Shown here piece by piece: positions 29,998 through 53,437 of a stretch of 64,000 nt of DNA; within the stretch, counting starts at the first letter, position 1, and each line of letters starts with the position of its first letter. The stretch lies in assembly GCF_000027125.1 (NCBI RefSeq), contig NC_017626.1, one strand, 5' to 3'. The position numbers were made by a program, and so were the translations under genes. The notes below the pieces were generated by a model, which searched no databases, was not told the origin of the DNA, and saw only the letters and a program-made list of their open reading frames with translations. The DNA comes from Escherichia coli 042 (lineage in GTDB: Bacteria > Pseudomonadota > Gammaproteobacteria > Enterobacterales > Enterobacteriaceae).

Positions 29998-30560
29998 CCG
30001 GCTATGGCAGAAATCAGGACGCTGGCGCAGGTAAAAATCAAAGGGAAGAAGGCTCATTGCGGTTACTGACGCCGGGAGAGATTGCGCTGGCGAGGCTGGT
30101 ATTCAGGTTGACAATCCCTTATGAAAAGGTCTGGATCCACCATGACAGTTTTCTGCCTTTTGGTCTTCAGAATAAGCAAACTGCCATGCCCCCCGATGGT
30201 AAGATTTATTTCCGTGAGCACTATCGGGATGATTATTCACTCAGCGTTCCCTTTTATCAGCATATGTTTATTCATGAAATGGCGCATGTCTGGCAGCGTG
30301 AAAAGGGAATGAATGTCATCGGTCGGGGGATGTTCAGTTGGGCGGTGAATTACCGTTATGTTCTGGACGGGCGTCTGTTAAGCGAATATCCCATGGAGCA
30401 GCAGGCACAAATTATTGCTGATCATTTTACTTTGCAGGCTGAAGGATACGGGACATGGTGTGATATGAGAAGGGACGGTGATATCACACTGGACGGAAAT
30501 ATGTCTGAGTATGTTATTCGCAGCCTGTATACCAGCACGTTGCGGGGGTTCCCATGGTAA
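29994..30560 (+). CDS. HExxH zincin-like protein (DUF4157-like), candidate T6SS-associated effector or accessory protein
   Basis: Motif FIHEMAHVWQ preceded by VWIHHD and GKIYFREHY; start overlaps clpV stop (also possible at 29985). Confidence 0.5.
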   Translation: MTGYGRNQDAGAGKNQREEGSLRLLTPGEIALARLVFRLTIPYEKVWIHHDSFLPFGLQNKQTAMPPDGKIYFREHYRDDYSLSVPFYQHMFIHEMAHVWQREKGMNVIGRGMFSWAVNYRYVLDGRLLSEYPMEQQAQIIADHFTLQAEGYGTWCDMRRDGDITLDGNMSEYVIRSLYTSTLRGFPW

Positions 30561-31096
30561 AAATAAGAGCCTTTCGTTATCGTTCTGCTTTACTGCTCTG
30601 TCTGACGTTACTGACAGGATGCCCCGGACGCGGGGATTATTATCGGTTTGATGAAACAGTAACGGTCAGCACAAGAGGCGACAATGTGTGTTTCAGTGTC
30701 CCGGAGCCAGAGGACTACCAGCCAGTCAGCGTTTCCATCGCTCCACGGGGAACCCGATTCAGGGAGCGGCAAATTACATCTGAACCCTCGCTTCGTATCG
30801 TGAACGGCCAGCTGTGCATTCCGCCTTCATTCTGTCTTTTTCCTGATAAAGGCCAGTTCATTGTCAGGTCTGTTCTGCACTCTGAGCGCGATAAGGACAC
30901 ACCGCGCATCATGGTTGCCGGCATAGAGATTGCCGACGGGTGTATTTTCGATATCCCGCTTAATGACATGGAGGTCGTGAGGCCATACGGTGAGCTGAAA
31001 AGCAGTAATGTTCAGACTGACCAGAGCGAACGTCATGGTCCCTGCAAATACCCTTTCAGAGCTGTTCGTGGAGTGATAAATCATGAATCTCACTGA
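30554..31096 (+). CDS. Predicted lipoprotein (possible cognate immunity protein)
   Basis: Signal peptide with lipobox LLTGC; overlaps preceding gene end and vgrG start. Confidence 0.5.
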   Translation: MVKIRAFRYRSALLLCLTLLTGCPGRGDYYRFDETVTVSTRGDNVCFSVPEPEDYQPVSVSIAPRGTRFRERQITSEPSLRIVNGQLCIPPSFCLFPDKGQFIVRSVLHSERDKDTPRIMVAGIEIADGCIFDIPLNDMEVVRPYGELKSSNVQTDQSERHGPCKYPFRAVRGVINHESH

Positions 31097-33608
31097 CTCC
31101 CTGCAAAATGTTTTATCCGGGGTGGGAACCCTGAACCGCTACAGACTGGATATACCTTCCTGCCCGTCATCGCTGGATGTTGAAGATTTCAGCGGAACTG
31201 AAGGCATAAGTAAGATTTACCGGTATGACATCATTTTTACCAGTACGGACAGGTATCCTGATGCTGCCTGGTTCCTGCGTAAATCCGCAACCCTGATAAT
31301 GGGAACCGGATTACTGGAAAGCCTGACTGAACAGAAAAAAGTGCACGGTGTTATTACTGATTTCAGACGTATTTCTGGCTCTGAGGACCAGGCACAATAC
31401 CGGATCACACTTAAACCTTTCATTTCCCTGCTGGATAAACAGTTCCGTACACACCGTTTTTTCGTTAATAAATCAGTGCCTGAGGTGGTGGAGCAAATCC
31501 TGACGGAACACGGGCTGAAAGGCTGGGAGTATGAGTTCAGCCTCAAAAGGACATATCCGAAGCGCGAACAGATTAACCAGTATCAGGAAAGCGATCTGAG
31601 ATTTATCCAGCGCCTGCTGGCAGAAGTGGGCATTTTTTACTTCTTTACGTTGCACCCGGATGCGCAGACAGAGGTGATCCACTTCGGTGACGTCCAGGCG
31701 GCGTTGATATTTGATAAAACACTGCCCGTTAACAGCCCGTCCGGTATGAGTGACAGTGGCACAGACTCAGTATGGGCATTGAATGTGGAGCACCGGGTGG
31801 TGGAAAGCCGTGTTATCACGAACGACTATAACCACCGCGAGGCCCAGAACATACTGATGTCCGTACCGGCGGACATGACCCGTGGAGAAGGTTACGACAC
31901 CAGTTATGGCGAGGTTTATCATTACCGGCCACGCCATACAGAAAGGGGCGATAAAATTGACCCTGCGCCGGAGACGGCTAACTTCTGGGCCCGGCTCGAT
32001 CACGAGCGTTTTCTGGCTGAGCAAACACGTATCACAGGTAAAAGCACCGATGCCAGTCTGTTACCGGCACAGGTGCTGACTATTACTGACAGTACTCCAC
32101 CAGTGTTGCCTGCACCGTTACAGGAGCCGGTTCTGCTCACGCAGCTTCTGTTCACCGGTAGCCGGAAATCTGCGCTACAGGTGATGCTGAGTGCTGTTCC
32201 TTACAGCGAGATTGTCTGCTGGCGACCACCGTTACTTACTCGTCCGAAAATCACCGGGACCATGACGGCCCGTGTGACCAGTGCAAAAGAAGGGGATATC
32301 TACGCCTGGCAGGATGCTTCAGGCATGTACCGGGTGAAATTTGATGCTGACCGTGATGATAAAAATCCGGGACAGGAAAGTATGCCGGTACGTCTGGCCA
32401 AACCCTACAGTGGTGATGCTTATGGTTTTCATTTTCCGCTGATTCAGGGAACGGAAGTGGCCATTGCTTTTGAGGAAGGTGATCCGGATCGTCCCTATAT
32501 AGCGCATGCCCTGCATGATTCACGTCATGTTGATCACGTTACCGATAAGAACGGTACGCGCAATGTTATCCGTACGCCGGCAAATAACAAGTTGCGGATG
32601 GAGGACAAACGCGGTGAGGAGCATATCAAGCTCAGTACCGAGTATGGCGGTAAGACACAACTTAATCTTGGCCATAACGTTGATGCCTCCCGGGAACTCA
32701 GGGGAGAAGGCGCTGAGCTGAGGACTGATGACTGGATAAGTATCCGGGGAGGAAAAGGAATATTTATCAGTGCAGATATGCAGCCTCAGGCACAAGGAAA
32801 GATGCTGGATATGGATGAAGCTATCCGCCAATTGGAGCAGGCATTATCTCTGGCCCGAAGTATGGCGAAGGCCGCAACTGCTGCAAATGCTACTCAGGGA
32901 GATATAAGTTGTCAGCAACGGTTGAATGCATCACTAACAGATCTCACTGCGCCGGGAATGCTGTTGCATGCTCCTGATGGGATTGGCATGGTTAGTGCGC
33001 GGGCGTTACGAATTGCTTCAGGTAGTGAAAGCGTGGGCATAATGTCGGGAGATAACACTGATATTACTGCCGGGCAGTCATTTACAGTTGTAGCAGAAGG
33101 TGCTGTTAGCCTGTTGAGCAGAAACCAGGGGATGCAACTGTTAGCAGCAAAAGGGCGGGTAAATATTCAGGCTCAAAGTGACGATTTGTCAATGAGTTCC
33201 CAACAGAATCTTGATATTCAAAGTTCTGAGGGCAAAGTGACTGTTTCTGCTAATCAGGAACTGATACTGGCATGTGGTGGAGCTTATATCAAACTAAGCG
33301 GTGGAAATATTGAGCTGGGATGCCCGGGACAGATTCTGTTAAAAAGCACGAATATGCAGAAGATGGGACCAACAAGTCTTGATATTGCGTCTGTTGAAAT
33401 GCCGCGAGGGTTTGGGGGCGGTTTTATTCTTACCGATGAAGCGGGAGTGCCGCAACCTTCGACGCCTTATCGATTAACAACGGCTGAAGGTGATATTCTA
33501 CAGGGGATCACCGATGAAAATGGTAAAACAGCGCCAGTCAACACCTCCATTCCGTCAGTAGTAAAAGTTGAGTTTGGGAAGGTAAAAATTCATGGAGAAA
33601 CAGAATGA
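31083..33608 (+). CDS. vgrG: T6SS spike protein VgrG (TssI) with C-terminal extension
   Basis: 841 aa; gp27/gp5-like core and C-terminal extension; followed directly by lipase effector gene. Confidence 0.9.
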   Translation: MNLTDSLQNVLSGVGTLNRYRLDIPSCPSSLDVEDFSGTEGISKIYRYDIIFTSTDRYPDAAWFLRKSATLIMGTGLLESLTEQKKVHGVITDFRRISGSEDQAQYRITLKPFISLLDKQFRTHRFFVNKSVPEVVEQILTEHGLKGWEYEFSLKRTYPKREQINQYQESDLRFIQRLLAEVGIFYFFTLHPDAQTEVIHFGDVQAALIFDKTLPVNSPSGMSDSGTDSVWALNVEHRVVESRVITNDYNHREAQNILMSVPADMTRGEGYDTSYGEVYHYRPRHTERGDKIDPAPETANFWARLDHERFLAEQTRITGKSTDASLLPAQVLTITDSTPPVLPAPLQEPVLLTQLLFTGSRKSALQVMLSAVPYSEIVCWRPPLLTRPKITGTMTARVTSAKEGDIYAWQDASGMYRVKFDADRDDKNPGQESMPVRLAKPYSGDAYGFHFPLIQGTEVAIAFEEGDPDRPYIAHALHDSRHVDHVTDKNGTRNVIRTPANNKLRMEDKRGEEHIKLSTEYGGKTQLNLGHNVDASRELRGEGAELRTDDWISIRGGKGIFISADMQPQAQGKMLDMDEAIRQLEQALSLARSMAKAATAANATQGDISCQQRLNASLTDLTAPGMLLHAPDGIGMVSARALRIASGSESVGIMSGDNTDITAGQSFTVVAEGAVSLLSRNQGMQLLAAKGRVNIQAQSDDLSMSSQQNLDIQSSEGKVTVSANQELILACGGAYIKLSGGNIELGCPGQILLKSTNMQKMGPTSLDIASVEMPRGFGGGFILTDEAGVPQPSTPYRLTTAEGDILQGITDENGKTAPVNTSIPSVVKVEFGKVKIHGETE

Positions 33609-35287
33609 CAAAATATCAGGGATATGACGTAACAGATGCCACCCATAAAACCAGTATTCATAATGACTGGAAAGTTGTTGTTGCAAAGAAAAAACCGGCG
33701 CGGGGTGTGACTTTAACTATTGGCATATTTTTCGATGGTACCGGAAACAATCGGGAGAATACAGCATCTCGCCTGATGAAATTTAATGAGTGTAGTGCAG
33801 CCAGACAGGGGGTAAATCAAAAAGATGCACAAAGCTGTGAGGACTTTCTTAAAGAAATTAACAAGAACAGTATCTCGAATGGCAGTTATCGTGGATATTA
33901 TTCCAATATTCACTGGCTTAATATACTCTATCATCCAGATCAGGTACTTAAAAAAGACCAGACGTCAGCTCAAATTAAGACTTACATTTCCGGGATAGGG
34001 ACTGCGGCTGGTGAAGCAGATTCAGTCATAGGCATGGGATTAGGCACCAGTATTCTGGATATATTTGAAGGTGTGGTGACGAAAACCGACGAGGCAATGG
34101 AACGAATCACCCAGGCGTTATCAGAATTTATGGGGTTCAATTTAAGTCCTGATTTTTGTATCGCAAAAATCCAGTTTGATGTTTTTGGTTTTAGCCGGGG
34201 AGCAGCGGCGGCAAGGCACTTTGCCAATCGGGTTATGGAACAGGATCCTGCTATAGCCAGAGCTATTGCTAAAGGGCTCAGAGGCGATTTTTATGATGGT
34301 AAACCTTCTGGTGAAGTACGTTTTCTGGGGCTTTTTGATACTGTCGCAGCTATTGGTGGAATCAGTAATTTCTTCGATATTAATGGACGTAGCAACCCGG
34401 GAGTAAAGCTGGAGTTGCGTCCTTCAGTCGCGAAGAAAGTTTTCCAGATTACTGCAATGAATGAATACCGATATAATTTCAGCCTGAACAGTATTAAAGG
34501 TATGTGGCCCGAACTGGCTTTACCGGGGGCGCATTCAGATATTGGAGGTGGTTACAATCCGGTAGGTTCACCTCTGCAGGAAAATGAAAGTCTGTTTCTG
34601 AGTTGCCCGGAATTTGAAATTGTCAGTGACGATACCAGAGAAATGGATACGCGAGTATACCGTAAAGCAGAGCAAGTCAGAAAAATGTTGATGACTCTGC
34701 CAGCCTTAAAACATATTTTGCCTCATGGAAAACTAACCACCAAAATTCGTTCCATAGGTGTGAACAACAGCAATCAACGTCGGGCTGGTGTGATACAAAA
34801 GCAGGTGGGAGCCGCAGTATTTTTTGAGCGTATGGCAGTACCTAATGACTGGGCTAATGTTTGCCTGCGTGTGATGCTGGATGCTGCTCAGGAAGCAGGG
34901 GTATTGTTTGAACCAATTCGACAAACAAATACTGAGTTACAACTTCCATCTGAACTAATATTTCTTGCTGACAAAGCCATTGCTCAGGGAAAAGCGGTAC
35001 GTTTGGGGCAAGAGCCTCAGGCTTTTACTGAGGAAGAGTTGTATATTATCGGAAAATACACCCATTGTTCCGCTAACTGGAATATTGAGTCTGATGGTAA
35101 TTTATGGGTGGATCCTACAACGGGAGAGATTTTTATCCATCGCTTTGGTCCTAAAGGTAATAAGGCGTTCGTTTTTCCGAATAAACCAAATGATCGCTGG
35201 ATTCGTTCTGTATGGTACATGGATGATCAGCAGCGATTGAATGATAACGCAGTAAAAAATACTAAAGTTATGATGTCTGGTGTTTAA
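33605..35287 (+). CDS. tle1: Tle1-family T6SS phospholipase effector (DUF2235 alpha/beta hydrolase)
   Basis: IGIFFDGTGNN motif and GFSRG (GxSxG) nucleophile elbow; ATGA overlap with vgrG. Confidence 0.85.
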   Translation: MTKYQGYDVTDATHKTSIHNDWKVVVAKKKPARGVTLTIGIFFDGTGNNRENTASRLMKFNECSAARQGVNQKDAQSCEDFLKEINKNSISNGSYRGYYSNIHWLNILYHPDQVLKKDQTSAQIKTYISGIGTAAGEADSVIGMGLGTSILDIFEGVVTKTDEAMERITQALSEFMGFNLSPDFCIAKIQFDVFGFSRGAAAARHFANRVMEQDPAIARAIAKGLRGDFYDGKPSGEVRFLGLFDTVAAIGGISNFFDINGRSNPGVKLELRPSVAKKVFQITAMNEYRYNFSLNSIKGMWPELALPGAHSDIGGGYNPVGSPLQENESLFLSCPEFEIVSDDTREMDTRVYRKAEQVRKMLMTLPALKHILPHGKLTTKIRSIGVNNSNQRRAGVIQKQVGAAVFFERMAVPNDWANVCLRVMLDAAQEAGVLFEPIRQTNTELQLPSELIFLADKAIAQGKAVRLGQEPQAFTEEELYIIGKYTHCSANWNIESDGNLWVDPTTGEIFIHRFGPKGNKAFVFPNKPNDRWIRSVWYMDDQQRLNDNAVKNTKVMMSGV

Positions 35288-35906
35288 CGCTACAGGATGA
35301 CAATACATGACCAGAGATAAAATCATTTTTATCGCACCATTATTGGCATTGTTAACTGGGTGTAATTCGGTTAGCTCACGGTATGCTGATTTGGATAAGA
35401 CTGAATGGGGTTATAAAAAATTACCCTATGATGAATGGAAATTTCTCTTTATTTATCCAAAGGCTCTGCCTGCGCTGGCCACCCAGGCGTTGATGGTGGA
35501 CGGGGAAGGTTATAAGACGACTTATCAGTATCTTGATAATACCGAGCCGAGTCAGGTCAGTGTAGGGCGCTGGAATGACCATCTGGGCGCGACTGAGTCG
35601 TATTATAACAAGGGGAAAGCATTACCCCTGATGTTGCGTTTTTGCTGGGATTCAATAATTGATAAAAAGAGTTATGAAACTCTGATTTTTTTTAAAAAAG
35701 GGACCTGGGAGCAGATGGTTACGCCTTACGCAGACAACCGCTGGAACGAAACCTATTATCGTTCAACGATGATTATTGGTCTGGCTCCTGAAGGGAAGGT
35801 AAGAGTCTGGCTGGGAGATCGCGGTAATCCGGTGGTACCTCAGTTGGATGCTAAAATTACTACAGTATCGGGTGATAAAATGAAGATGTGTAAGGGGGTT
35901 ACTAAA
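35238..35906 (+). repeat. Direct repeat copy 1 (~669 bp): last ~50 bp of tle1 plus most of tli1-a
   Basis: Matches 36059..36727 at a constant 821-bp offset; encoded proteins identical over ~200 aa. Confidence 0.8.
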
Positions 35907-35984
35907 AGTGATTTCTCATATGGATATGATGAAGATATTAAGGAGTTTATCAGAGATAAAACTTATCCTTACGGTAACTGGTGA
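35307..35984 (+). CDS. tli1: Tli1-like lipoprotein immunity protein, copy a
   Basis: Lipobox LLTGC; immediately downstream of tle1; 225 aa. Confidence 0.7.
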   Translation: MTRDKIIFIAPLLALLTGCNSVSSRYADLDKTEWGYKKLPYDEWKFLFIYPKALPALATQALMVDGEGYKTTYQYLDNTEPSQVSVGRWNDHLGATESYYNKGKALPLMLRFCWDSIIDKKSYETLIFFKKGTWEQMVTPYADNRWNETYYRSTMIIGLAPEGKVRVWLGDRGNPVVPQLDAKITTVSGDKMKMCKGVTKSDFSYGYDEDIKEFIRDKTYPYGNW

Positions 35985-36058
35985 CTCAAACCAGAATAAT
36001 GATGAGCATATAAAAAGAAAATCTAATTTTCATCTGGCGTAAAAAAACGGGCAATAGC

Positions 36059-36727
36059 TGAATGATAACGCAGTAAAAAATACTAAAGTTATGATGTCTG
36101 GTGTTTAACGCTACAGGATGACAATACATGACCAGAGATAAAATCATTTTTATCGCACCATTATTGGCATTGTTAACTGGGTGTAATTCGGTTAGCTCAC
36201 GGTATGCTGATTTGGATAAGACTGAATGGGGTTATAAAAAATTACCCTATGATGAATGGAAATTTCTCTTTATTTATCCAAAGGCTCTGCCTGCGCTGGC
36301 CACCCAGGCGTTGATGGTGGACGGGGAAGGTTATAAGACGACTTATCAGTATCTTGATAATACCGAGCCGAGTCAGGTCAGTGTAGGGCGCTGGAATGAC
36401 CATCTGGGCGCGACTGAGTCGTATTATAACAAGGGGAAAGCATTACCCCTGATGTTGCGTTTTTGCTGGGATTCAATAATTGATAAAAAGAGTTATGAAA
36501 CTCTGATTTTTTTTAAAAAAGGGACCTGGGAGCAGATGGTTACGCCTTACGCAGACAACCGCTGGAACGAAACCTATTATCGTTCAACGATGATTATTGG
36601 TCTGGCTCCTGAAGGGAAGGTAAGAGTCTGGCTGGGAGATCGCGGTAATCCGGTGGTACCTCAGTTGGATGCTAAAATTACTACAGTATCGGGTGATAAA
36701 ATGAAGATGTGTAAGGGGGTTACTAAA
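36059..36727 (+). repeat. Direct repeat copy 2 (~669 bp), including a fossil of the tle1 3' end upstream of tli1-b
   Basis: Sequence tgaatgataacgcagtaaaaaatactaaagttatgatgtctggtgtttaa (tle1 stop region) recurs before second tli1. Confidence 0.8.
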
Positions 36728-36805
36728 CATCCAGATGGATATGTTTATTACGGTGATACACCAGATTTTATCAAAGGGAAAATTTATCCCTACGGCAACT
36801 GGTGA
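36128..36805 (+). CDS. tli1: Tli1-like lipoprotein immunity protein, copy b (divergent C-terminal ~25 aa)
   Basis: Identical to copy a through ...KMKMCKGVTK, then diverges (HPDGYVYYGDTPDFIKGKIYPYGNW). Confidence 0.7.
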   Translation: MTRDKIIFIAPLLALLTGCNSVSSRYADLDKTEWGYKKLPYDEWKFLFIYPKALPALATQALMVDGEGYKTTYQYLDNTEPSQVSVGRWNDHLGATESYYNKGKALPLMLRFCWDSIIDKKSYETLIFFKKGTWEQMVTPYADNRWNETYYRSTMIIGLAPEGKVRVWLGDRGNPVVPQLDAKITTVSGDKMKMCKGVTKHPDGYVYYGDTPDFIKGKIYPYGNW

Positions 36806-36836
36806 CTCAAAGTGAAAATTTATTTTTGAGAGTATT

Positions 36837-37103
36837 ATGTCTAAAGGTTTTGTATTGCTTGGTGATAATACCACACATGGTGGTAAAGTTATTTCTGCAT
36901 CTTCAACCATGATTGTCGATGGTAAAAAAGTAGCTCTTGTTGGAGATATGGTTAGTTGCCCTGTTTCCGGACATGGTACCAATCCTATTGTGGAGGGCTC
37001 TCCTGAATGGATATCTGATGGAAGAGCTGTTGTGATTGATGGATGTAAATGTCTGTGTGGGTGTAAGGTTATATCCAGTGCACCGGAATGTGCAATAGGA
37101 TAA
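36837..37103 (+). CDS. PAAR-domain spike-tip protein
   Basis: 88 aa, Gly/Cys-rich (GDMVSCPVSGHG, CKCLCGCKV) typical of PAAR cone proteins. Confidence 0.75.
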   Translation: MSKGFVLLGDNTTHGGKVISASSTMIVDGKKVALVGDMVSCPVSGHGTNPIVEGSPEWISDGRAVVIDGCKCLCGCKVISSAPECAIG

Positions 37104-37106
37104 AAC

Positions 37107-38255
37107 ATGGGATGGAGCAGAACAAAATCATTATCAACAGAATTACCTCATAAACCATCAATGATGTTGTGGTTTATGACAGGGGCATTTATGGCTGTTG
37201 TTGGTGCTCTGTTGTTTATTATCCGGGCATCAGAATATGTGAAAGCATTAAATAATTTCAGTATCTGGTGGCTTGCATTGACTCCTCCGGGGTGCTGGTT
37301 TTTCCTGTTTTGCCTGCGACACTGGCAGTGGAGCAACCAGATGGATGAACATTTGTTTCTTAAAAAAGAGGGGGAGTATGCTCAGAAACAGTGGGAATCC
37401 TGGGCCGAAAGGTATCTTGTTATTACTGCCAGTTGTGTTTATTTGCCTGATAAAATAACGGTAGCTACTCTTTGTGATGAATTGCCTCTGCAGTACGGCC
37501 TTGTAAAGAAAATAGATTATCTTTCTGACAGTGGGCATAAGGTTGAAGCCTCTTTACGTGTCTTGCTTAGGGAGATAACGGATAAATTTTGTCAGTTACC
37601 TGCCGCTCTCCCTGTAAATGTGACGCTGATAACCGATCAGCCTGATTCTGAAATCAGATCTGCTTTTGTTTCTGCATGGGAAGCGTTATTTCCCCAACGC
37701 GTCGTTCCTGACAATATCGAGGTTACTCCTGACTTTTCCATGGGGTGGGTTGATGAGCGTCTGAAACAACCAGTGCTGACTGTGGATTTGATACTGGTAA
37801 TACAGCTTAATGGGGGAAATACATACTCTGACGGACTGGCTGCACTTTTGTTGACCAGCGATGATGTTGCGCAAAAATATAATCTGTCGCATTCAGCCCG
37901 TCTGCTACGCCCGATGTCGCTGGATATCAACAAGTTTAATGATGAATTCACACTTTTCCTTGAAACCCAGACAGCAGCCTGTCGTACCGCTCGTGTACTG
38001 GGAGACTGTTATCACTGGGAAAAGATTGCTGCACCGCTGATGACTATTGGAAACCAGTATGGTGCCGGATGGGAACCGTCCGGACGTATGTTACTGGAAA
38101 AATGGTGCGGTATCCCGGGACCTGCTGCTCCGTGGCTGCTTACTGCTCTGGCAGCCGATCTGGTCTGTCTTGGTAATGATTCTCTCCTGACTTTATTCTC
38201 ATCCGGAGAAGAACATTTTATCAGTACTGTTACATCAGGAAACCAGAATGAATAA
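37107..38255 (+). CDS. Hypothetical membrane protein between PAAR and tssM
   Basis: 382 aa; two N-terminal TM helices; tightly packed with flanking genes. Confidence 0.5.
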   Translation: MGWSRTKSLSTELPHKPSMMLWFMTGAFMAVVGALLFIIRASEYVKALNNFSIWWLALTPPGCWFFLFCLRHWQWSNQMDEHLFLKKEGEYAQKQWESWAERYLVITASCVYLPDKITVATLCDELPLQYGLVKKIDYLSDSGHKVEASLRVLLREITDKFCQLPAALPVNVTLITDQPDSEIRSAFVSAWEALFPQRVVPDNIEVTPDFSMGWVDERLKQPVLTVDLILVIQLNGGNTYSDGLAALLLTSDDVAQKYNLSHSARLLRPMSLDINKFNDEFTLFLETQTAACRTARVLGDCYHWEKIAAPLMTIGNQYGAGWEPSGRMLLEKWCGIPGPAAPWLLTALAADLVCLGNDSLLTLFSSGEEHFISTVTSGNQNE

Positions 38256-41200: not shown

Positions 41201-41637
41201 CTGCTGCCGGTGTGATGCAGACGACGCTGATAACCGATAATCAGAAACTGATTTATGTTAATCAGATGCCGGTATGGAAGCGATTTACCTGGCCGGCTGA
41301 TACGGAAGCACCTGGCGCCAGTTTAAGCTGGGTAAGCACTCAGGCCGGTACCCGTCAGTATGCAGACCTGCCGGGAAGCTGGGGGCTGATACGTCTGCTT
41401 GAGATGGCCCGACGGAAAGCCGCACCGGGCGTTGCCAGTGGCTGGAGCCTGAGCTGGCAGGCGCAGGACGGTCGTATGCTGAATTACACACTGCGAACTG
41501 AAGCGGGGGAAGGGCCGCTTGTATTGCTGAAACTCCGCAATTTTGTTCTGCCGGAAACGGTTTTCGAACTCTCCGGCACGTCAGCGTTTACAGGCAATGA
41601 CGAAGATGCCGGGGATACCGTGGAGGAGACTGACTGA
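38248..41637 (+). CDS. tssM: T6SS membrane complex subunit TssM (IcmF-like)
   Basis: 1129 aa; N-terminal TM helices, large periplasmic domain. Confidence 0.9.
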   Translation: MNKLACLSGRFGRPGIVFIGVAALWWLITRYGAYLGAETRRDQILLLILLSLGVLFVCYLPVMKKYVQELTYRRRARKEQRLPDDEERLAQTPPRYVTVQDIRHTLRRQYGRFWGRKIRILLITGTASEVELLTPGLTEQFWQEEQGTLLLWGGDPSQPENADWLAALRRLRYRPADGIVWVTSGLSETLSAPLTEDALDRVSRAVSSCCERLGWRLPLYVWSLQESPDERGRITQPVGCLLPAECSSDKLKAQLQAMLPGLVAQGIQQICCAPRYYFLLSLAERFRRNIDAVVEPLSVLLRPYRQLLLAGIVFSPATVGGERSVRHRWRMDNRWEALPETVQQLPVRLQPSRTGHNWRRSLAVMAAILMMAQGTGMVVSFLANRSLVAEVQEQIRPAQNQQLSPAERLQALLNLQKSLARLQYREEHGAPWYLRAGMNQNADLLAVVMPLYAQNAHLLLRDAAAAHLEQQLRTFIRLPPDSPQRGKMAKAAYDQLRLYLMLAQPQHMEPAWFSRTLMREWPQRDGVSAVFWQANGPTLLAYYASGIITHPQWKLTADEELVSQSRTLLLRHLGTQNSDAMLYQKMLARVAHQFADMRLTDMTGDTDVSRLFFTDEVVPGMFTRQAWEEAVLPSIDTVINERREEMDWVLTDGRQKAPSPVSPEALRQRLTTRYFADFGNAWLNFLNSLHLRKAQTLSDVTEQLTLMADVRQSPLVALMNTLAVQGCTGQPREAVTDSLVKSARNLLSQEKQPVAVPESRLHGPLATTFGPVLALMDNQNNSADMLNLQTYLTRVTQVRLRLQQIAGSSDPQAMMQLLAQTVLQGKSVDLTDTRDYGSLTAAGLGQEWYGFGQTVFVRPMEQAWQQVLTPAAESLNARWRTAVVDGWNNAFSGRYPFKNVSSDASLPLLAKYLNTDTGRIARFLQNNLSGVLHREGSRWVPDTINTRGLTFNPAFLKAINTLSEIADVAFTTGNAGLHFELRPGTAAGVMQTTLITDNQKLIYVNQMPVWKRFTWPADTEAPGASLSWVSTQAGTRQYADLPGSWGLIRLLEMARRKAAPGVASGWSLSWQAQDGRMLNYTLRTEAGEGPLVLLKLRNFVLPETVFELSGTSAFTGNDEDAGDTVEETD

Positions 41638-43235
41638 TGGCTTCCATTCATTCGCTCCTCAGTGCATGCCAGACGACACCCCGGGATGTGGCTGAACCGG
41701 CTCAGGTGCGTATTGCGCTGTGGGATAAATGGCTTGCTCCCGTGACGCCAGATAATCCCGCAGGTGATGATGCGGGGTACGATGATGATTTTCAGCAGAT
41801 GCGTGAAGAGGTCAATAAACTCTCCGGAGCCGATGCCGGAATTGTCAGCCAGCTTGCAGAAAAATTACTGACCACCAGAACCAAAGATATCCGGGTGGCG
41901 ACCTGGTATATCTGGGCCCGTCTGCGGCAGGATGGTGAAAAAGGTCTGGCCGACGGTCTGGAGCTGCTGACCGGTTTGTTGCAGCGTTTTGGAGAGCACC
42001 TGCATCCACAACGGTCACGGGCCAGGAAGGCGGCGCTGGAGTGGTTATGCAGCGCCCGCATACTGGACAGTCTGTCTCTGTATCCGGAGGTGGTGAAGGC
42101 GGATACCCTGCGCATTGCCGGGGCGCTGTGGCTGGCAGAACAGACCTTTACGGATGAGGCTTCCGCCCCGGTGCTGAACGGGTTATATCAGGCACTTGAA
42201 AATCGCCTGATGAAGGCCGGTGGTGTTGATGCAGTGGTGCCTCAGGAGGCTGCCGCGCCGGCACCGACGGTAACATCCGGCAGCGTCATGGCATTATCTG
42301 CCATCACCTCCGGACAGGAACTGCTGTCACAGGCCCGTGTTCTGGCAAAATATCTGCGTGACCAGCCTGAGGGCTGGCTGGCGGCTCATCGACTGATGAA
42401 AAGCGTCCGGCATGACACGCTGCATCAGTTACCGCCGTTATCTGCTGATGGACGGACCCGTATTGCCCCACCGGGGCCGGACCGGCGTGCGTCACTGAAA
42501 CGGTTGTATCTGCAGCAGAACTGGTTGTCACTGCTTGAACAGTGTGACGATATGTTTGCCCGGGGAGCCAGTCATCTGTGGCTGGACCTGCAGTGGTATA
42601 TTCATCAGGCGCTGTTGCAGACCGGAAAAGAAAATTATGCTGCCATTATTCAGTATGACCTGAAAGGATTGCTTCTGCGCCTGCCGGGGCTTGAGACACT
42701 GGCTTTTAACGACGGCATGCCGTTTGCCGATGACGTGACGCTGAGCTGGATACAGCAGCAGGTGATGGAGTGTGGTGAACGCTGGGCGGAAGAACCTTCT
42801 GTAACGATAACGGCAGCTCCCGGAGATAACGACATTTTATCTCTTGAGCCGGAAGCCCTGCAGATTGCGGATAATGAAGGAACAGAAGCCGCTTTAAGCT
42901 GGTTACAGGCACGTCCCGGTATTCAGTCTGACCGCAGCAACTGGCTACTGCGCCTGTTGATGGCCCGTGTTGCCGAACAGACAGGAAAAAATGACCTTGC
43001 CCTGCACCTGCTTGCGGAGCTGGATGAACGTGCAACCCGGCTGACCCTGTCACAATGGGAACCTGAACTGGTATTTGAGGTAAAAGCCCGCCGCCTGAAA
43101 CTGTTGCGTATGAAGTCCGCAAAAACTGAAAGTGACAGGGTGCGTCTGCAGCCTGATATGGAACATCTTCTTGCCGGGCTCATCGCCATTGATGCTGCCA
43201 GAGCTGCTGTGTTGTGCAATTCGGGAAGTTCATGA
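41637..43235 (+). CDS. tssA: T6SS protein TssA (ImpA N-terminal domain)
   Basis: ImpA_N pattern VTPDNPAGDDAGYDDDFQQMREEV...WYIWARL; ATGA overlap with tssM. Confidence 0.88.
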   Translation: MASIHSLLSACQTTPRDVAEPAQVRIALWDKWLAPVTPDNPAGDDAGYDDDFQQMREEVNKLSGADAGIVSQLAEKLLTTRTKDIRVATWYIWARLRQDGEKGLADGLELLTGLLQRFGEHLHPQRSRARKAALEWLCSARILDSLSLYPEVVKADTLRIAGALWLAEQTFTDEASAPVLNGLYQALENRLMKAGGVDAVVPQEAAAPAPTVTSGSVMALSAITSGQELLSQARVLAKYLRDQPEGWLAAHRLMKSVRHDTLHQLPPLSADGRTRIAPPGPDRRASLKRLYLQQNWLSLLEQCDDMFARGASHLWLDLQWYIHQALLQTGKENYAAIIQYDLKGLLLRLPGLETLAFNDGMPFADDVTLSWIQQQVMECGERWAEEPSVTITAAPGDNDILSLEPEALQIADNEGTEAALSWLQARPGIQSDRSNWLLRLLMARVAEQTGKNDLALHLLAELDERATRLTLSQWEPELVFEVKARRLKLLRMKSAKTESDRVRLQPDMEHLLAGLIAIDAARAAVLCNSGSS

Positions 43236-43236
43236 G

Positions 43237-43929
43237 ATGTCTGTCATGCATTATCTTCAGGACAAAACATTTCAGGATATAGTCAAAAATCTGGTGTTAC
43301 CGCTTCTGTCGGGCATTATTATTCCTCTTGTCAAATGGTTTGTGCAGCATTATGGCTATGCGCCGAATATCAGGAAATACAGATTTGAAAAAATTCCTGT
43401 ATCTGAAAAGGAGTCCATTCTTGCCCGTATTGACAAACTGACAAAAGAACCAGCAACGAAAAATACACTGGTAAGAATAAAATACTGTTATGAACAGATG
43501 GGGATATATCTCCCGACGTGGTGTTGTAATAAGCTGATTTGTTTTATATCCGACAGAAATATCAGCTCAGTGGATAACAGACTGCATTGTTTTCTTAAAT
43601 ATTCTTTTGTCGGTATATTTTTAGATGGCAAATTTACTGTTAATACTCGTCGTGTGCATAAAAGTTACTGGATGATAGCAGTGTTTTCGGTGTTTTCTTT
43701 ATGTGTTCAGTTTACGGGAGGGATACTTACAACCATGCCATTTCTGTCGGGGAGTAATACAGTTTTATTTATGTTATTTTCTCTCGTTTATTTTATCATG
43801 ATATTTCTGACAGTTATATTCACATGTAATCTGATTAATGAAATCCGGCTTGCCGTTCAGTTCGGGCGATTGTTTGAGGCATGGCTGAAGTCAGAGCGCG
43901 AGTCTCCGGAACAGTTAGCTTTATTCTGA
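43237..43929 (+). CDS. Low-GC hypothetical multi-pass membrane protein inserted between tssA and tssF
   Basis: 230 aa from MSVMHYL; C-terminal half strongly hydrophobic; local GC clearly below flanking T6SS genes. Confidence 0.5.
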   Translation: MSVMHYLQDKTFQDIVKNLVLPLLSGIIIPLVKWFVQHYGYAPNIRKYRFEKIPVSEKESILARIDKLTKEPATKNTLVRIKYCYEQMGIYLPTWCCNKLICFISDRNISSVDNRLHCFLKYSFVGIFLDGKFTVNTRRVHKSYWMIAVFSVFSLCVQFTGGILTTMPFLSGSNTVLFMLFSLVYFIMIFLTVIFTCNLINEIRLAVQFGRLFEAWLKSERESPEQLALF

Positions 43930-43936
43930 GAAGATA

Positions 43937-45700
43937 ATGGACGATTTAACCCTGCGTTATTTTGACGCTGAAATGCGTTATCTGCGTGAAGCCGGAAAGG
44001 CGTTTGCACAGGCTCATCCCGATCGGGCGGCGATGCTGGATCTCGATAAAGCGGGTACGCCTGATCCCTGCGTGGAACGCCTGTTTGAAGGTTTCGCCTT
44101 TTCCATGGGACGACTGCGCCAGAAAATCGACGATGATTTGCCGGAGCTTACTGAAAGTCTGGTCAGTATGCTCTGGCCTCATTACCTGCGTACTATCCCG
44201 TCCCTGTCGGTGGTGGCACTGACTCCCCGGTTATCCGTCATGAAAATGGCTGAAACCGTACCAGCCGGACTGGAAGTGACTTCCCGCCCTGTTGGCCCCG
44301 GAAATACAGTCTGTCGTTACCGTACCACCCGGGCCATACCACTGAATCCACTGGCAGTGGAGAAGGTTGTTATGACGACGGAGCCGGACGGGCGTTCAGT
44401 GTTGAAAATAGGTTTTGCCTGCAGTGAACTGGCTGACTGGTCTCAGGTCGATTTGCATCGTCTGAGCCTGTATCTGGCAGCAGAAGCCCCGGTCAGCAGC
44501 ACCCTTCATCTGATGATGACAAAGCGTCTGGCTGCGCTGTATCTGAGGCTGCCGGGAAATGATGAGCGGATCCGCATTGACGGATGGTTTTCACCCGGTG
44601 GTTTTGCAGAAGAAGATCGGCTGTGGCCGAAAGGTGACAGTGCTTTCAGTGGGTATCAGTTATTGCTGGAATATTTCACCTTTCGGGAAAAGTTTATGTT
44701 TGTTCATCTGAACGGACTGGAGAATGTTTCTCTGCCGGCAGGTATTTCCGGATTCGATCTTGAGGTGGTGCTGAGTCAGCCCTGGCCAGCAGATTTACCT
44801 GTGACAGACGATGCCCTGTGTCTGCATTGTGTGCCGGTGATTAACCTTTTTACGCTTGAAGCCGATCCACTCATCATCAATGGGCTGGAGAGCGAATACC
44901 TGCTGCGCCCGAAGCGTCTGCAGGATGGGTATACGGAGATATATTCAGTGGATGCGGTGACGGGCTCCGGGCGGACCGGCAGTGCAGAGTACGTGCCTTT
45001 TACCAGCTTCCGTCACCGTGGGGGAATGCTGCGCCATGATGCACCCGAACGTTATTATCATACCCGGGTGAAGCGGGGTGTCACGGGGATGTATGACACA
45101 TGGCTTATCCTTGGCGGTCAGCGGTGGGAGGCGGATCGGATGCCGGAGCGGGAAACGCTTTCATTACGTATTACAGGTACCAATGGTCAGCTTCCCCGTC
45201 GTGCGTTGCAGAGTACGCTGCTTGATCGGTGTGAACAGGTACTGCAGGCCCCGGTCAGTGTACGTAATCTTTGTAAACCCACGCTACCGGTTTATCCGCC
45301 GACAGAAGATCGTTTTCACTGGCGGGTGATGAGTCATCTGGGGACAGGATTTCTTAACATGCTGAGCAGTGCGGAAGTGCTGCGTGGCACGCTGGCGCTT
45401 TATAACTGGCGGGACGATGAACTTAATCACCGTCGGCTTGATGCCATTCTGGCTGTACAGCATCATCGTATTCAGCGTTTTGAAAAGGGTTTTCTGCTCC
45501 GGGGGCTTGATGTGGAGGTAACTCTTGATGGCAACGGGTTTGCCGGAGAGGGAGATATTCACCTGTTTGGCGAAATGCTCAACCGTTTCCTGGCCCTGTA
45601 CGCCGATATGAATCAGTTCAATCAGCTCACACTGATTGTTCAGCCTGAAGGAAAATGCATCCGGTGGAAAGAAAATCACAATCCGCGCCTGCCCGGTTAA
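43937..45700 (+). CDS. tssF: T6SS baseplate subunit TssF
   Basis: 587 aa; N-terminus MDDLTLRYFDAEMRYLREAGKAFAQAHPD typical of TssF. Confidence 0.9.
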   Translation: MDDLTLRYFDAEMRYLREAGKAFAQAHPDRAAMLDLDKAGTPDPCVERLFEGFAFSMGRLRQKIDDDLPELTESLVSMLWPHYLRTIPSLSVVALTPRLSVMKMAETVPAGLEVTSRPVGPGNTVCRYRTTRAIPLNPLAVEKVVMTTEPDGRSVLKIGFACSELADWSQVDLHRLSLYLAAEAPVSSTLHLMMTKRLAALYLRLPGNDERIRIDGWFSPGGFAEEDRLWPKGDSAFSGYQLLLEYFTFREKFMFVHLNGLENVSLPAGISGFDLEVVLSQPWPADLPVTDDALCLHCVPVINLFTLEADPLIINGLESEYLLRPKRLQDGYTEIYSVDAVTGSGRTGSAEYVPFTSFRHRGGMLRHDAPERYYHTRVKRGVTGMYDTWLILGGQRWEADRMPERETLSLRITGTNGQLPRRALQSTLLDRCEQVLQAPVSVRNLCKPTLPVYPPTEDRFHWRVMSHLGTGFLNMLSSAEVLRGTLALYNWRDDELNHRRLDAILAVQHHRIQRFEKGFLLRGLDVEVTLDGNGFAGEGDIHLFGEMLNRFLALYADMNQFNQLTLIVQPEGKCIRWKENHNPRLPG

Positions 45701-48419: not shown

Positions 48420-49664
48420 ATGGCAGGAGGAAAAAAAGATGATAATGCAGCGGGATTTGTCCTGATTTTAGTTTGCGTTATTCTCTGGGGGATTTATGTG
48501 GCGGTCAGGGCGCTGATAAATCTTAATGAGCGCTTTATTGATGCAGTATCGAATCCGGCAGGTATTATTGGTTTGTTTTTTGGTTTGCTTACTGTATTTG
48601 CAATTTTACTTCGTTTTTTTATTTACCGGAGACTCAGAAAGAAAACAGCAGCCTTTGAGCAGGCCGTTTCAGAGCTGGTTCAGAGAGAGCGGGGTTTTAA
48701 TGAAACTGTCAATGCCGCGATAGCCCGGGGAATACGACAGGAAAAGGAGCAACTGGCCAGACGTCGTGAGGAATTTCATACCGCCAGACAGAAGGCCAGC
48801 CGTGCAATGCAACGGATTGTTGATTCCGCCTGGAAATTTAAGGCGAAGACTCTGCTGGCTGGTGTAACGATTAATAACTGGCAAAGCAAATATGACCAGC
48901 TTCGTAAGGAAAGAGAGGCTTACGCTGCTGTCAGTGAGAAAATAGCCTTTCTTAACCTGGAAGATAATTCTGACCGGGAGAGTATCAGGCAACAGTTTCT
49001 GGACAAAGTGGCATTGCTGGAAAAAGCGCAGGAAGAGAAGGAATATCAGGCAGAGCTTAAGCGTCAGATGCGTGAAGAAAAAGAGCGTCAGGATGAACCT
49101 GAACGGCGCCAGCGGGAAGCGGAAGAGGAAGAACGGCGTCTTGCTGAGCAGCAGAAACTGATTGAGGAGGCGCTGCGCGCAGCAGAAGGGGCTCACAGGG
49201 AGGAGTTAGAGAAACAACGCCTGGAGCTGGAACAGAAAATTCAGGAAGCGCATGCGCAGTATGAACGTGCTAAATCCATGGCTCAGCTTACGAAACAGGG
49301 GCATGTTTATATCATTTCGAATATTGGTTCGTTTGGTGAGGATGTCTTTAAAATTGGCATGACCCGACGGCTGGAACCCATGGACAGGGTCAAAGAGTTA
49401 AGTGGTGCTTCTGTTCCGTTTGATTTTGATGTTCACGCCATGATTTCCTGTGATGATGCGCCTGCGCTGGAAAAAACACTTCATGACAGTCTGGAAAAAT
49501 ACCGCATTAACAGGATTAACCTGCGTAAAGAATTTTTCCGCGTGAAGCTTGAGAAAATCATTAATGAAGTGGAGCGTCACCACGGGCAGGTGGAATATGT
49601 GGCTGACCCGGCGGCGCTGCAGTACCTGCAGAGTCTGGAATACGCGGAAAATGAAGCTGCCTGA
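48420..49664 (+). CDS. Membrane-anchored coiled-coil protein with C-terminal T5orf172/GIY-YIG-like nuclease domain (DUF4041-type architecture)
   Basis: Two N-terminal TM helices; long charged (E/R/K/Q) coiled-coil; C-terminus GHVYIISN...FKIGMT... resembles GIY-x10-YIG. Confidence 0.65.
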   Translation: MAGGKKDDNAAGFVLILVCVILWGIYVAVRALINLNERFIDAVSNPAGIIGLFFGLLTVFAILLRFFIYRRLRKKTAAFEQAVSELVQRERGFNETVNAAIARGIRQEKEQLARRREEFHTARQKASRAMQRIVDSAWKFKAKTLLAGVTINNWQSKYDQLRKEREAYAAVSEKIAFLNLEDNSDRESIRQQFLDKVALLEKAQEEKEYQAELKRQMREEKERQDEPERRQREAEEEERRLAEQQKLIEEALRAAEGAHREELEKQRLELEQKIQEAHAQYERAKSMAQLTKQGHVYIISNIGSFGEDVFKIGMTRRLEPMDRVKELSGASVPFDFDVHAMISCDDAPALEKTLHDSLEKYRINRINLRKEFFRVKLEKIINEVERHHGQVEYVADPAALQYLQSLEYAENEAA

Positions 49665-49857
49665 CAGTCAGTGTTCTGATTTTACCCCGGCCGGATATAA
49701 CAGAAGGGATATCTGCAGATACCCTGCAGCATGGTTCACAGTATTCTGGTCATGTTAATGATTCTGTTTTTTATTTCTGAATAAAGCGATACCCACGATA
49801 TAACATCCGTGGATGTCGGTGGTGATTATTTTTTTGTTCACAGATTAAGGTGCGTTT

Positions 49858-51645
<1,788 letters not shown>

Positions 51646-52069: not shown

Positions 52070-53437
52070 ATGACTTCTGAAGTGAAACTGAAAACCGGTG
52101 GTGACCCCCGGTCATTACCGGATTATGCTGCCCTGCGCGATGAAATCAGCAAACTGACTCACCCGGCACGCCCGGATGTGGACTGGCGTTACGTGGAAAC
52201 ACTCTGCCTGCGTCTGTATGAACACAATGGCGTGGAATTACAGACGGCATCCTGGTACACCATCGCCCGGATGCATACAACAGGGTTAAGTGGTCTGAAT
52301 GAAGGGCTGGCTCTGATTGTGGCGCTGACCCGGCATCACTGGTCAGTGATGTGGCCGCTGAATACCCACGCCCGGCTGGAAATTATTACCGGTCTGTTCA
52401 ACCATCTGCAAAAAACGCTTCGGGCCATGCCTCCGGACGACCGTGACAACCTGCCCCTGCTGTATCAGACCGAAACATTCCTGAAGGCACTGAGTGACAC
52501 ACTGGCCCGGCACGAACTTAAACAGAGCAGTAAAGTGGCTTTACCGGAAGCCATGGTGAAGGGATATATCACCCGCCTGGAGAACCAGCCTGTGCAGGGT
52601 GAAGTATCGTCTCCGGTAACCCTTCCGGCGCAGGCACTCCGGTCTGATGCTCCGGACGTACAGGAACATCAGACCCTGCCGCACTCCCGTCTGGTGTATG
52701 TTGTTTCTGAAACAAAAGCAGAGAGCGGAAAAGAAAACACACATTCCCTTCAGAAATCCCCGCCCACGTTTCTGAAACCGTTTGTAACTGGTGTCTGTGC
52801 GGCATTGCTGGCGGTCAGCGTGGCCATTCCGGGATGGCAGTTTCTGACACAGCCATCACCGGCGGAGCAGCAACTCAGGGCGTTGCTGACACCACCACCG
52901 GATGTGCTTTCAGCAGGCCAGATGACACAGCTCAGCAGAACACCTTCACTGCTAAATCATGCGTCAGAGTGGATAACCCTTTCCGGTCAGCAGATAACAC
53001 GACTGGCAGAACTACCCCCGGCATACAACCTGCAACGCAGTGCGCAGCTGCTGCAGCAACTGAGGGTACTTTTTCCCGACAATCCCCGTGTTCAGGAAAT
53101 GGTGGATAACTGGCAGAAGAGTGTAAGGAGTCGTGCGCTCCCGGAAGAGGCGATGGCGGGCTGGAACGAAGGCATGACCCGCTTACAGCAGCTGGCTGAG
53201 CGCCTGAACCGTCTGGATGAGCAGCGGGGAAAATACATGACGGTCAGTGAACTGAAAACGGAGGTGTTTGGCATCATGCAGGCTTTTAACCGGCATATCC
53301 CGGCAGAAGAGCAGTTACGTCGCTATGATGAAGTTCGTAACCAGAATAGCAGTGAACAGCAGCAAAAAAAGGTGGAAAATGGTCTTGTCGAGCTGGTGAG
53401 TCGTTACTGGGTTTTGACGCAAGGGGACATGAAGTGA
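52070..53437 (+). CDS. ImpA_N-domain T6SS accessory protein (TagA/VasL-like)
   Basis: N-terminal DPRSLPDYAALRDEISKL...DWRYVETLCLRLYEHNGVELQTASWY parallels TssA ImpA_N; central TM helix. Confidence 0.6.
   Translation: MTSEVKLKTGGDPRSLPDYAALRDEISKLTHPARPDVDWRYVETLCLRLYEHNGVELQTASWYTIARMHTTGLSGLNEGLALIVALTRHHWSVMWPLNTHARLEIITGLFNHLQKTLRAMPPDDRDNLPLLYQTETFLKALSDTLARHELKQSSKVALPEAMVKGYITRLENQPVQGEVSSPVTLPAQALRSDAPDVQEHQTLPHSRLVYVVSETKAESGKENTHSLQKSPPTFLKPFVTGVCAALLAVSVAIPGWQFLTQPSPAEQQLRALLTPPPDVLSAGQMTQLSRTPSLLNHASEWITLSGQQITRLAELPPAYNLQRSAQLLQQLRVLFPDNPRVQEMVDNWQKSVRSRALPEEAMAGWNEGMTRLQQLAERLNRLDEQRGKYMTVSELKTEVFGIMQAFNRHIPAEEQLRRYDEVRNQNSSEQQQKKVENGLVELVSRYWVLTQGDMK

Follow-up and report, generated by a model that had tools for sequence, protein, structure and literature searches.

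The DNA analysed here (the window) is a 64,000-nucleotide stretch of Escherichia coli 042 (NC_017626.1) carrying a Sci-1-type cluster for type VI secretion (T6SS), and our subject is the open reading frame (ORF) which lies in this cluster between the core genes tssA and tssF (43237..43929, on the forward strand, as are tssA, tssF and all of the parts of the ORF described below). From the ORF coordinates, hidden Markov model (HMM) family searches and an AlphaFold2 model, it encodes a 230 amino acid (aa) inner-membrane protein with three predicted transmembrane (TM) helices, belonging to an uncharacterised family. We found that the ORF is an ancestral occupant of the slot upstream of tssF in the Sci-1-like T6SS lineage of the Enterobacterales and that it evolves like cargo and not like the secretion machine. 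A role in conflict rather than in building of the apparatus is suggested because the ORF evolves far faster than the machine around it, and the reading that we favour, with a probability of about 35%, is that its product is a membrane protein with a protective, immunity-like function. That the ORF is a real gene follows from the retention of its length and frame in alleles that are 22% apart in nucleotides, from a ratio of non-synonymous to synonymous divergence (dN/dS) below 1, from its membership of a family of 27 representative clusters and from a confident AlphaFold2 model.

The Sci-1 system of enteroaggregative E. coli is among the best-dissected T6SS models, yet the gene between its tssA and tssF is absent from the searchable literature; in strain 042 the locus tag of the gene should be EC042_4541, which no paper there mentions, and published work gives EC042_4540 as TssA and EC042_4542 as TssF. 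The RefSeq entry for the ORF in E. coli 55989 (WP_000115357.1) is named only “hypothetical protein”. Depending on what its function proves to be, the gene would add to a model T6SS a new determinant of immunity or identity or else a new accessory protein.

Age and divergence of the gene upstream of tssF

Comparison of the Sci-1 clusters of E. coli strains 55989 and STEC308 showed that they are 95-100% identical over 30 kb except for two islands, one of which is the vgrG/effector/immunity cargo (29970-36850) and the other the ORF, with the other cluster genes 96.7-99.8% identical. The ORF product was only 65% identical where TssF was 99.8% identical, and this gap was seen at every depth of comparison, with identities of 38-43% where TssF was 93-96% identical, 27-35% where it was 76-81% identical and 20-22% where it was 48-53% identical. 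Between allele classes, the overall synonymous divergence (dS) of the ORF was 0.31-0.41, compared to 0.02-0.07 in tssA and tssF, and its dN/dS was 0.62-0.78 compared to 0.02-0.24. The block from the second to the third TM helix (TM2 and TM3) gave a dS of 0.81 and a non-synonymous divergence (dN) of 0.63 between E. coli alleles A and B. The alleles are thus old and they are also mosaic; a patch around the first TM helix (aa 22-41) and a patch in the body of the gene, each with two variants, were seen in all four combinations, which indicates intragenic recombination (mosaic alleles of the first patch being found in 55989, STEC308, RM14721 and CFIA0511). Such hypervariability is specific to the T6SS-embedded copies of the family, and the family is the sole hypervariable element of the cluster besides the effector cargo. 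In being hyperdivergent relative to the core, lower in guanine plus cytosine (GC) content and allelically exchanged, the ORF behaves as a cargo module does. In PMC6730261, Unterweger 2014 is cited for effector modules having a GC content 6-13% below that of structural genes and sharing less than 30% DNA identity across strains whose structural components are more than 95% identical.

Fast divergence does not mean recent arrival. A homologue directly precedes tssF, with codons that abut or overlap, in each of at least eight divergent Sci-1-like lineages whose TssF proteins are 48-100% identical. These include Cedecea neteri (loci L012 and L009) and the lineages P0007 (L004), P0015 (L015), P0011 (L036 and L037) and P0009 (L008), together with two more distant clusters, P0022 (L021) and P0023 (L034), in which the order is tssM-ORF-tssF and TssF is about 50% identical to that of 55989. 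Pairwise identities of the ORF product and of TssF were correlated (Spearman 0.86) and therefore the gene has travelled with the cluster at a coarse scale. Universal conservation at this position with a defined structural role is what the initial annotation had named as telling against its own account of the gene as an insert; the conservation found is wide but not universal, and the gene has no defined structural role. At one of these loci (L008, a metagenome contig, 258-716) tssA is cut to an N-terminal piece of about 87 aa and a C-terminal piece of 46 aa, and the family member downstream is intact.

The junctions on both sides of the ORF are tight. It starts with an ATG at 43237, 1 nucleotide after the TGA stop codon of tssA at 43233-43235 (junction 43233..43239; tssA, the upstream core gene, 41637..43235), and it stops at 43927-43929, with the ATG of tssF following 7 nucleotides later at 43937 (tssF, 43937..45700); family members that lie in T6SS clusters are always immediately upstream of tssF. 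The 1-nucleotide spacing from tssA suggests translational coupling, and tight or overlapping junctions comparable to it were found at the orthologous loci L004, L009, L015, L021 and L034. The placing of the gene by the initial annotation, between tssA and tssF, 1 bp past the tssA stop in a Sci-1-type core operon, agrees with these coordinates, and its suggestion that the gene might be variably present among E. coli Sci-1 clusters was borne out. The Sci-1 lineage occurs in 67 of 5426 complete E. coli genomes, 41 of which have a full-length ORF (2 of these frameshifted) and 24 of which have a 566-bp deletion, so that the 65 complete genomes holding any part of the ORF comprise 39 intact, 24 deleted and 2 frameshifted copies.

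Alignment with the deletion strain A30 placed the endpoints of the 566-bp deletion at two 14-bp imperfect direct repeats, TCATGAGATGTCTG on the left (43230..43243) and TCATGATATTTCTG on the right (43796..43809). What remains is the last 117-134 bp of the ORF, 43796-43929 being retained on a Citrobacter plasmid as well as in the 24 E. coli genomes, and because a deletion between imperfect repeats leaves such a remnant, the ORF-less state is derived. Core genes appear intact in the 26 of 65 E. coli clusters which have lost the ORF by deletion or frameshift, and therefore it is at least dispensable for retaining the cluster. The Citrobacter copy is in Citrobacter sp. TSA-1 (plasmid NZ_CP053574.1, 16678-40791), where a complete Sci-1-type segment, from vgrG through tssE, lies on a 171-kb IncFIB/IncFII plasmid with the same deletion remnant. 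The genes that come after tssE there encode a GIY-YIG nuclease, a VasL/TagA-like protein, a PerC regulator and a ParB-like protein. It follows that the island as a whole can move from one genus to another.

The ORF is AT-rich, as had been noted at first, with a GC content of 37.4% (38.5% at third codon positions), compared to 51-56% in tssM, tssA, tssF, tssG, tssJ and tssE, and it is the lowest-GC 693-bp stretch of the T6SS cluster (0.23 percentile of such stretches between 20851 and 47706). The 566-bp deletion takes out nearly precisely this low-GC part. Homologues at the slot in other lineages have 36-45% GC against 57-64% in their neighbours, and at third codon positions the values were 36-46% (the ORF and the slots of L004, L012, L015, L021, L034 and L036) against 68-72%. 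The family is thus low in GC whatever its host, which is not a sign of recent arrival. A deficit of about 20 points is found at every orthologous slot. This is a compositional puzzle, because the gene seems to diverge together with the cluster and to have been inherited vertically with an operon rich in GC, yet shows no amelioration, and no explanation that we tried accounts for this persistence.

The initial annotation had seen the gene as a foreign insert in the core operon. Occupation of the slot in at least eight lineages, divergence that tracks that of TssF, the derived nature of the ORF-less state and the family-wide low GC all speak against this, and a recent horizontal insertion into the E. 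coli Sci-1 core operon is hardly credible, despite the difference in GC from the neighbouring genes and the variable presence in E. coli which might be taken to favour it. Orthologues at the slot in Cedecea and several other lineages extend to clusters with only about 50% identity in TssF, clusters lacking the ORF carry a repeat-mediated deletion with its remnant and not an empty site, and there are no mobility genes and no insertion scars at the locus. An origin from phage or plasmid was also rejected, as searches of 50,697 phage genomes and of IMG/VR gave no copy and the single plasmid match was the whole Sci-1 cluster on the Citrobacter IncF plasmid.

A related and commoner E. coli T6SS (1361 genomes, with tssF about 68-70% identical in nucleotides) has other contents in the tssA-tssF slot, namely a low-GC gene for a PAAR-toxin with a HEMGH motif and two ORFs for paralogous, immunity-like lipoproteins, and therefore the slot accepts cargo in this T6SS family. 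In E. coli CD306 (L027, 3602-5925) and in L026, at the argA/amiC locus, the PAAR protein has 474 aa with the metallopeptidase-like HEMGH motif at its C-terminal end, the lipoprotein ORFs encode 141 and 135 aa (the second being unannotated) and the whole segment has 29-40% GC.

The predicted protein and its stand-alone relatives

A word-indexed protein search found only relatives in E. coli (70-100% identity) while an exhaustive HMM search with alignment found 27 representative clusters of 200-270 aa, which align end to end. Searches of Pfam, NCBIfam, PADLOC and PHROGs with the query and up to 27 relatives gave nothing significant, with no match to any known Tss or Tag family in Pfam or NCBIfam; profile searches of PDB sequences with the whole protein and with its cytoplasmic domain gave no match, and there was no likeness in sequence or fold to any known immunity family. 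The family is thus without a known relative by family library or by fold, and is uncharacterised. It is new, though the general kind to which it belongs, that of variable, cargo-like membrane genes in T6SS clusters, is known.

The description in the initial annotation of a membrane protein with a hydrophobic C-terminal half was confirmed, with hydrophobic segments at aa 145-165 and 175-197, and there is an additional N-terminal hydrophobic segment at aa 15-37. By hydropathy the latter is the first TM helix (TM1, 43279..43347), which contains most of the independently exchanged patch of two variants described above. It is followed by a cytoplasmic domain (aa 45-136; 43369..43644) of four helices and a beta-hairpin, which is the most conserved part of the family and has the motifs RFxK(V/I) and LYEQ(I/M)GIxLPVW..HxLI...FLK. 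TM2 (aa 145-165), a short, uncharged periplasmic loop (aa 166-174) and TM3 (aa 175-197) then form a hypervariable module (43669..43827), the least conserved block of the family alignment, and the protein ends in a cytoplasmic amphipathic helix (aa 198-230; 43828..43926) which has a normal GC content, is identical across E. coli alleles and also has motifs shared by the family. There are 19 lysine and arginine residues in the loop at 38-144 and none in that at 166-174, and the three predicted helices with this positive-inside topology place the protein in the inner membrane. The N-terminus is therefore predicted to lie outside, with TM1 leading into a cytoplasmic domain of about 100 aa and the TM2-TM3 hairpin leading into an amphipathic tail in the cytoplasm, and the AlphaFold2 model (mean predicted local distance difference test score, pLDDT, 84.7; predicted template modelling score, pTM, 0.71) has a long N-terminal helix, a four-helix and beta-hairpin domain and a long helical hairpin.

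Family members are also found apart from T6SS genes. A metagenome scan gave 71 loci, 12 of them at the T6SS slot and about 58 stand-alone, and none of the 71 adjoins vgrG or hcp; in the contexts surveyed, no vgrG, hcp, PAAR or Rhs gene lies beside a stand-alone copy. The copy of P0008, which is probably a Salmonella lineage, adjoins genes for Mrr-like, QueD-like and SNF2/DEAD helicase proteins and in Klebsiella oxytoca and K. grimontii it adjoins symE-like and hsdS/hsdM genes. Further stand-alone copies are in a probable Raoultella lineage, in a widespread lineage of 218 aa lying among metabolic genes, between housekeeping genes, and in an island resembling an integrative and conjugative element which also bears a 51-aa remnant of tssF. 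In the K. oxytoca complex the stand-alone gene has a dN/dS of about 0.25 and is conserved like its upstream flank (94-98%), the stand-alone copies in Klebsiella and, probably, Salmonella being under purifying selection, and the protein therefore works without an adjacent T6SS. In K. oxytoca-complex metagenome loci (L059-L109, at about 5700-5800) the stand-alone member sits exactly where a conserved flank (94-97%) gives way to a region that differs entirely in sequence from strain to strain; in K. grimontii this region holds hsdS and hsdM, and the border is that of a genomic hotspot.

A possible immunity-like role and its rivals

Of the two roles suggested in the initial annotation, that of an orphan immunity protein is still our leading guess. 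If the ORF product is an immunity-like protein, it would be made together with the T6SS baseplate genes through the coupling of its start and stop codons to the neighbouring tssA and tssF, and its TM2-TM3 hairpin would be the surface that bears specificity against a membrane-inserting antagonist, most plausibly a pore-forming or membrane-active toxin delivered by a T6SS; the conserved cytoplasmic domain and tail may serve folding, oligomerisation or docking. We infer the protective function, and the use of the hairpin as a recognition surface, from several features taken together: the two-island pattern of divergence, the old and mosaic alleles, the gap in rate at every depth, the cargo in the slot of the related T6SS, the stand-alone copies functioning without an adjacent T6SS and the dispensability of the gene for retention of the cluster. 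Inner-membrane immunity proteins have precedents in those against pore-forming colicins (Cai, Cei and ImmE1) and in TsiV2, which protects against the T6SS effector VasX. Colicin immunity proteins of this kind recognise their toxins within the bilayer, and the combination of variable TM helices with conserved soluble parts found here matches this. Like immunity proteins against membrane toxins, the ORF product is a small polytopic inner-membrane protein with its variation concentrated in the TM helices, and like effector/immunity modules the ORF has low GC and extreme divergence relative to the machinery, with orphan copies scattered in genomes.

Several observations weigh against this interpretation. 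In about 16 distinct contexts and in the 71 metagenome loci, no family member has a cognate effector gene beside it, and in T6SS contexts the neighbours are always tssA or tssM upstream and tssF downstream, so that the adjacent effector gene, usually on the upstream side, which accompanies immunity genes is missing. A fixed position upstream of tssF, kept across genera while TssF ranges from 48 to 100% identity, is unusual for an immunity gene and fits an accessory protein better, and a simple immunity protein acting in the membrane would not be expected to have a family-conserved cytoplasmic domain of about 90 aa. No region has a dN/dS clearly above 1, the one exception resting on about 6 substitutions. 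Strict linkage of the ORF allele to the type of VgrG-linked effector was rejected, as allele A occurs with two types of cargo (that with Tle1 and that with an “ATPase”) and the deletion with all three; allele B is found exclusively with the “lipase” cargo (6 of 6) but this is probably a single lineage. These cargo types are three alternative VgrG-linked modules (window 29985-36805; L028, 9304-15422; L031, 6792-14823) in otherwise near-identical Sci-1 clusters. In 42 genomes the module is Tle1 with two copies of Tli1, in 7 it pairs a “lipase family” protein with one of 253 aa, and in 3 it combines a 775-aa “ATPase” with two proteins of the formylglycine-generating-enzyme family; vgrG itself is only about 70% identical between modules.

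The chief rival explanation, which we consider possible but doubtful, is that the ORF encodes a non-essential, “Tag-like” accessory protein of the T6SS, whose cytoplasmic domain and tail dock onto TssF, TssG, TssK or TssA while its TM helices are mere anchors, free to drift. Strict retention of the position in at least eight lineages, in two of which tssM-ORF-tssF occurs with no tssA between, synteny across taxa and divergence in step with TssF (rho 0.86) would all be explained by this, as would the conservation of precisely the cytoplasmic domain and C-terminal helix, and other accessory proteins of the cluster also diverge fast (32% identity in TagA against 66% in TssF, and 36-40% in a 382-aa membrane protein encoded upstream). 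TagL and TagA are likewise encoded within the operon, syntenic in a T6SS subfamily, membrane-associated and apparently non-essential; in PMC6730261, which summarises Santin 2018, TagA is described as not essential for T6SS activity, with about 12% of antibacterial activity left in a tagA mutant. Unlike them, the ORF product has no peptidoglycan-binding, ImpA_N or VasL domain, it is hypervariable within the species and it has stand-alone copies, intact and under purifying selection far from any T6SS gene. Relaxed anchors would neither lift dS 10-20 fold over the flanks nor create mosaic patches confined to the gene, and the loss of the ORF in 26 of 65 E. coli clusters and in the Citrobacter plasmid copy, with core genes intact, together with the lack of a match to known Tss or Tag families, also argues against an accessory function. 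An unlikely but more far-reaching alternative is that the family is an unrecognised ancestral component of Sci-1-like T6SSs which acts as an allele-specific membrane determinant, possibly a factor for self-identity or exclusion, such that the ORF product would decide whether a hit from an incoming or sibling T6SS does harm. Were this true, it would add a layer of T6SS conflict that is independent of toxins or dependent on toxins encoded in trans, built on a fold without a known relative. A bolder variant would have a TolQ/ExbB-like membrane module working with the MotB/OmpA-like TagL. IdsE of Proteus mirabilis, a T6SS-linked self-identity membrane protein which works with IdsD, is similar in description, being an inner-membrane protein encoded with T6SS genes and having an allelic variable region in or near a membrane span, but it has an adjacent, co-varying, T6SS-delivered partner in IdsD and nothing of this kind adjoins the ORF.

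Two further explanations were weighed. That the protein is an autonomous membrane-active one unrelated to secretion, sitting in a permissive slot as either a SLATT-like abortive-infection or pore-forming effector or a TolQ/ExbB-like channel, seems quite unlikely. Weak Foldseek matches to a “SMODS and SLOG-associating 2TM effector” (E 9e-5, TM-score 0.59) and to “MotA/TolQ/ExbB” (E 3e-3) point in this direction. The two-TM hairpin flanked by cytoplasmic helices recalls the SLATT 2TM effector domains reportedly described by Burroughs and colleagues in 2015, and variable or defence-type regions lie next to some of the stand-alone copies (symE and hsdSM in K. grimontii, Mrr and SNF2/DEAD helicases in P0008). 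The predicted TM1, cytoplasmic loop of about 100 aa, TM2-TM3 hairpin and cytoplasmic C-terminal helix correspond to those of TolQ/ExbB, and the length is that of TolQ (230 aa; the TolQ sequence used was validated against PDB 8odt). Against this, none of the 27 family members matches the Pfam families for SLATT or MotA_ExbB (PF01618), and homology to TolQ/ExbB was rejected despite the shared predicted topology, hhalign against TolQ and ExbB giving a probability of 0.08%. The hairpin would be the channel-forming part, and it is the least well conserved one here but the best conserved one in TolQ/ExbB. There is no TolR/ExbD/MotB-type partner at the slot or at the stand-alone copies and in the contexts surveyed no family member was associated with a SMODS, SLOG or TIR gene or shared an operon with nucleotide-signalling or defence genes, and PADLOC and the phage collections gave no match or copy. 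It is improbable, finally, that the AT-rich DNA itself is what matters, as a tract binding H-NS or otherwise regulatory that throttles transcription or translation into tssF-G-J-E, although such an effect may co-exist with a function of the protein. The GC deficit in every lineage includes third codon positions and is more than amino-acid composition alone can explain, and the natural deletion removes almost exactly the low-GC part. The protein is nevertheless under selection, as its dN/dS below 1, the family motifs, the confident predicted fold and the dN/dS of 0.25 in stand-alone copies indicate, and the regulatory insertion proposed by the initial annotation finds no backing in the number of promoter-like sites (3 compared to 2.6 expected) or terminator-like sites (2 compared to 1.3), nor was there any Rfam match.

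Other genes of the cluster

In E. coli 55989 (NC_011748.1, reverse strand) the Sci-1-type cluster runs in the order tssB-C-K-L, tagL, hcp, clpV, two small ORFs, vgrG, tle1, two copies of tli1, PAAR, a gene for a 382-aa membrane protein, tssM, tssA, the ORF and tssF-G-J-E, with the effector pair named Tle1-EAEC and Tli1-EAEC by NCBI. The 382-aa protein (window 37107-38255, between PAAR and tssM) has N-terminal TM helices and no match in Pfam or NCBIfam; its position is kept in all of the Sci-1-like clusters examined, with 36-40% identity across genera and 98% within E. coli, and it is thus a second uncharacterised, syntenic membrane protein of the Sci-1-like T6SS. Co-evolution of the ORF with this protein was considered and rejected, as it is 98.4% identical where the ORF product is 65% identical.

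Further downstream, positions 52070-53437 of the window hold a continuous ORF of 455 aa with a TssA/ImpA-like N-terminus, which is TagA-like and comparable to the genes of 458-466 aa with ImpA_N and VasL domains at other loci. RefSeq splits it into an ImpA_N pseudogene, a POTRA fragment and a VasL-domain protein, so it is either a chimera or an intact TagA that has been divided by annotation. Directly downstream of tssE (48420-51645) are a GIY-YIG nuclease gene and a NERD/UvrD-like gene annotated as “3'-5' exonuclease”; the latter also follows tssE in Cedecea (L009, 10780-12606) and the former is also on the Citrobacter plasmid, and both are defence-like genes which travel with the cluster.

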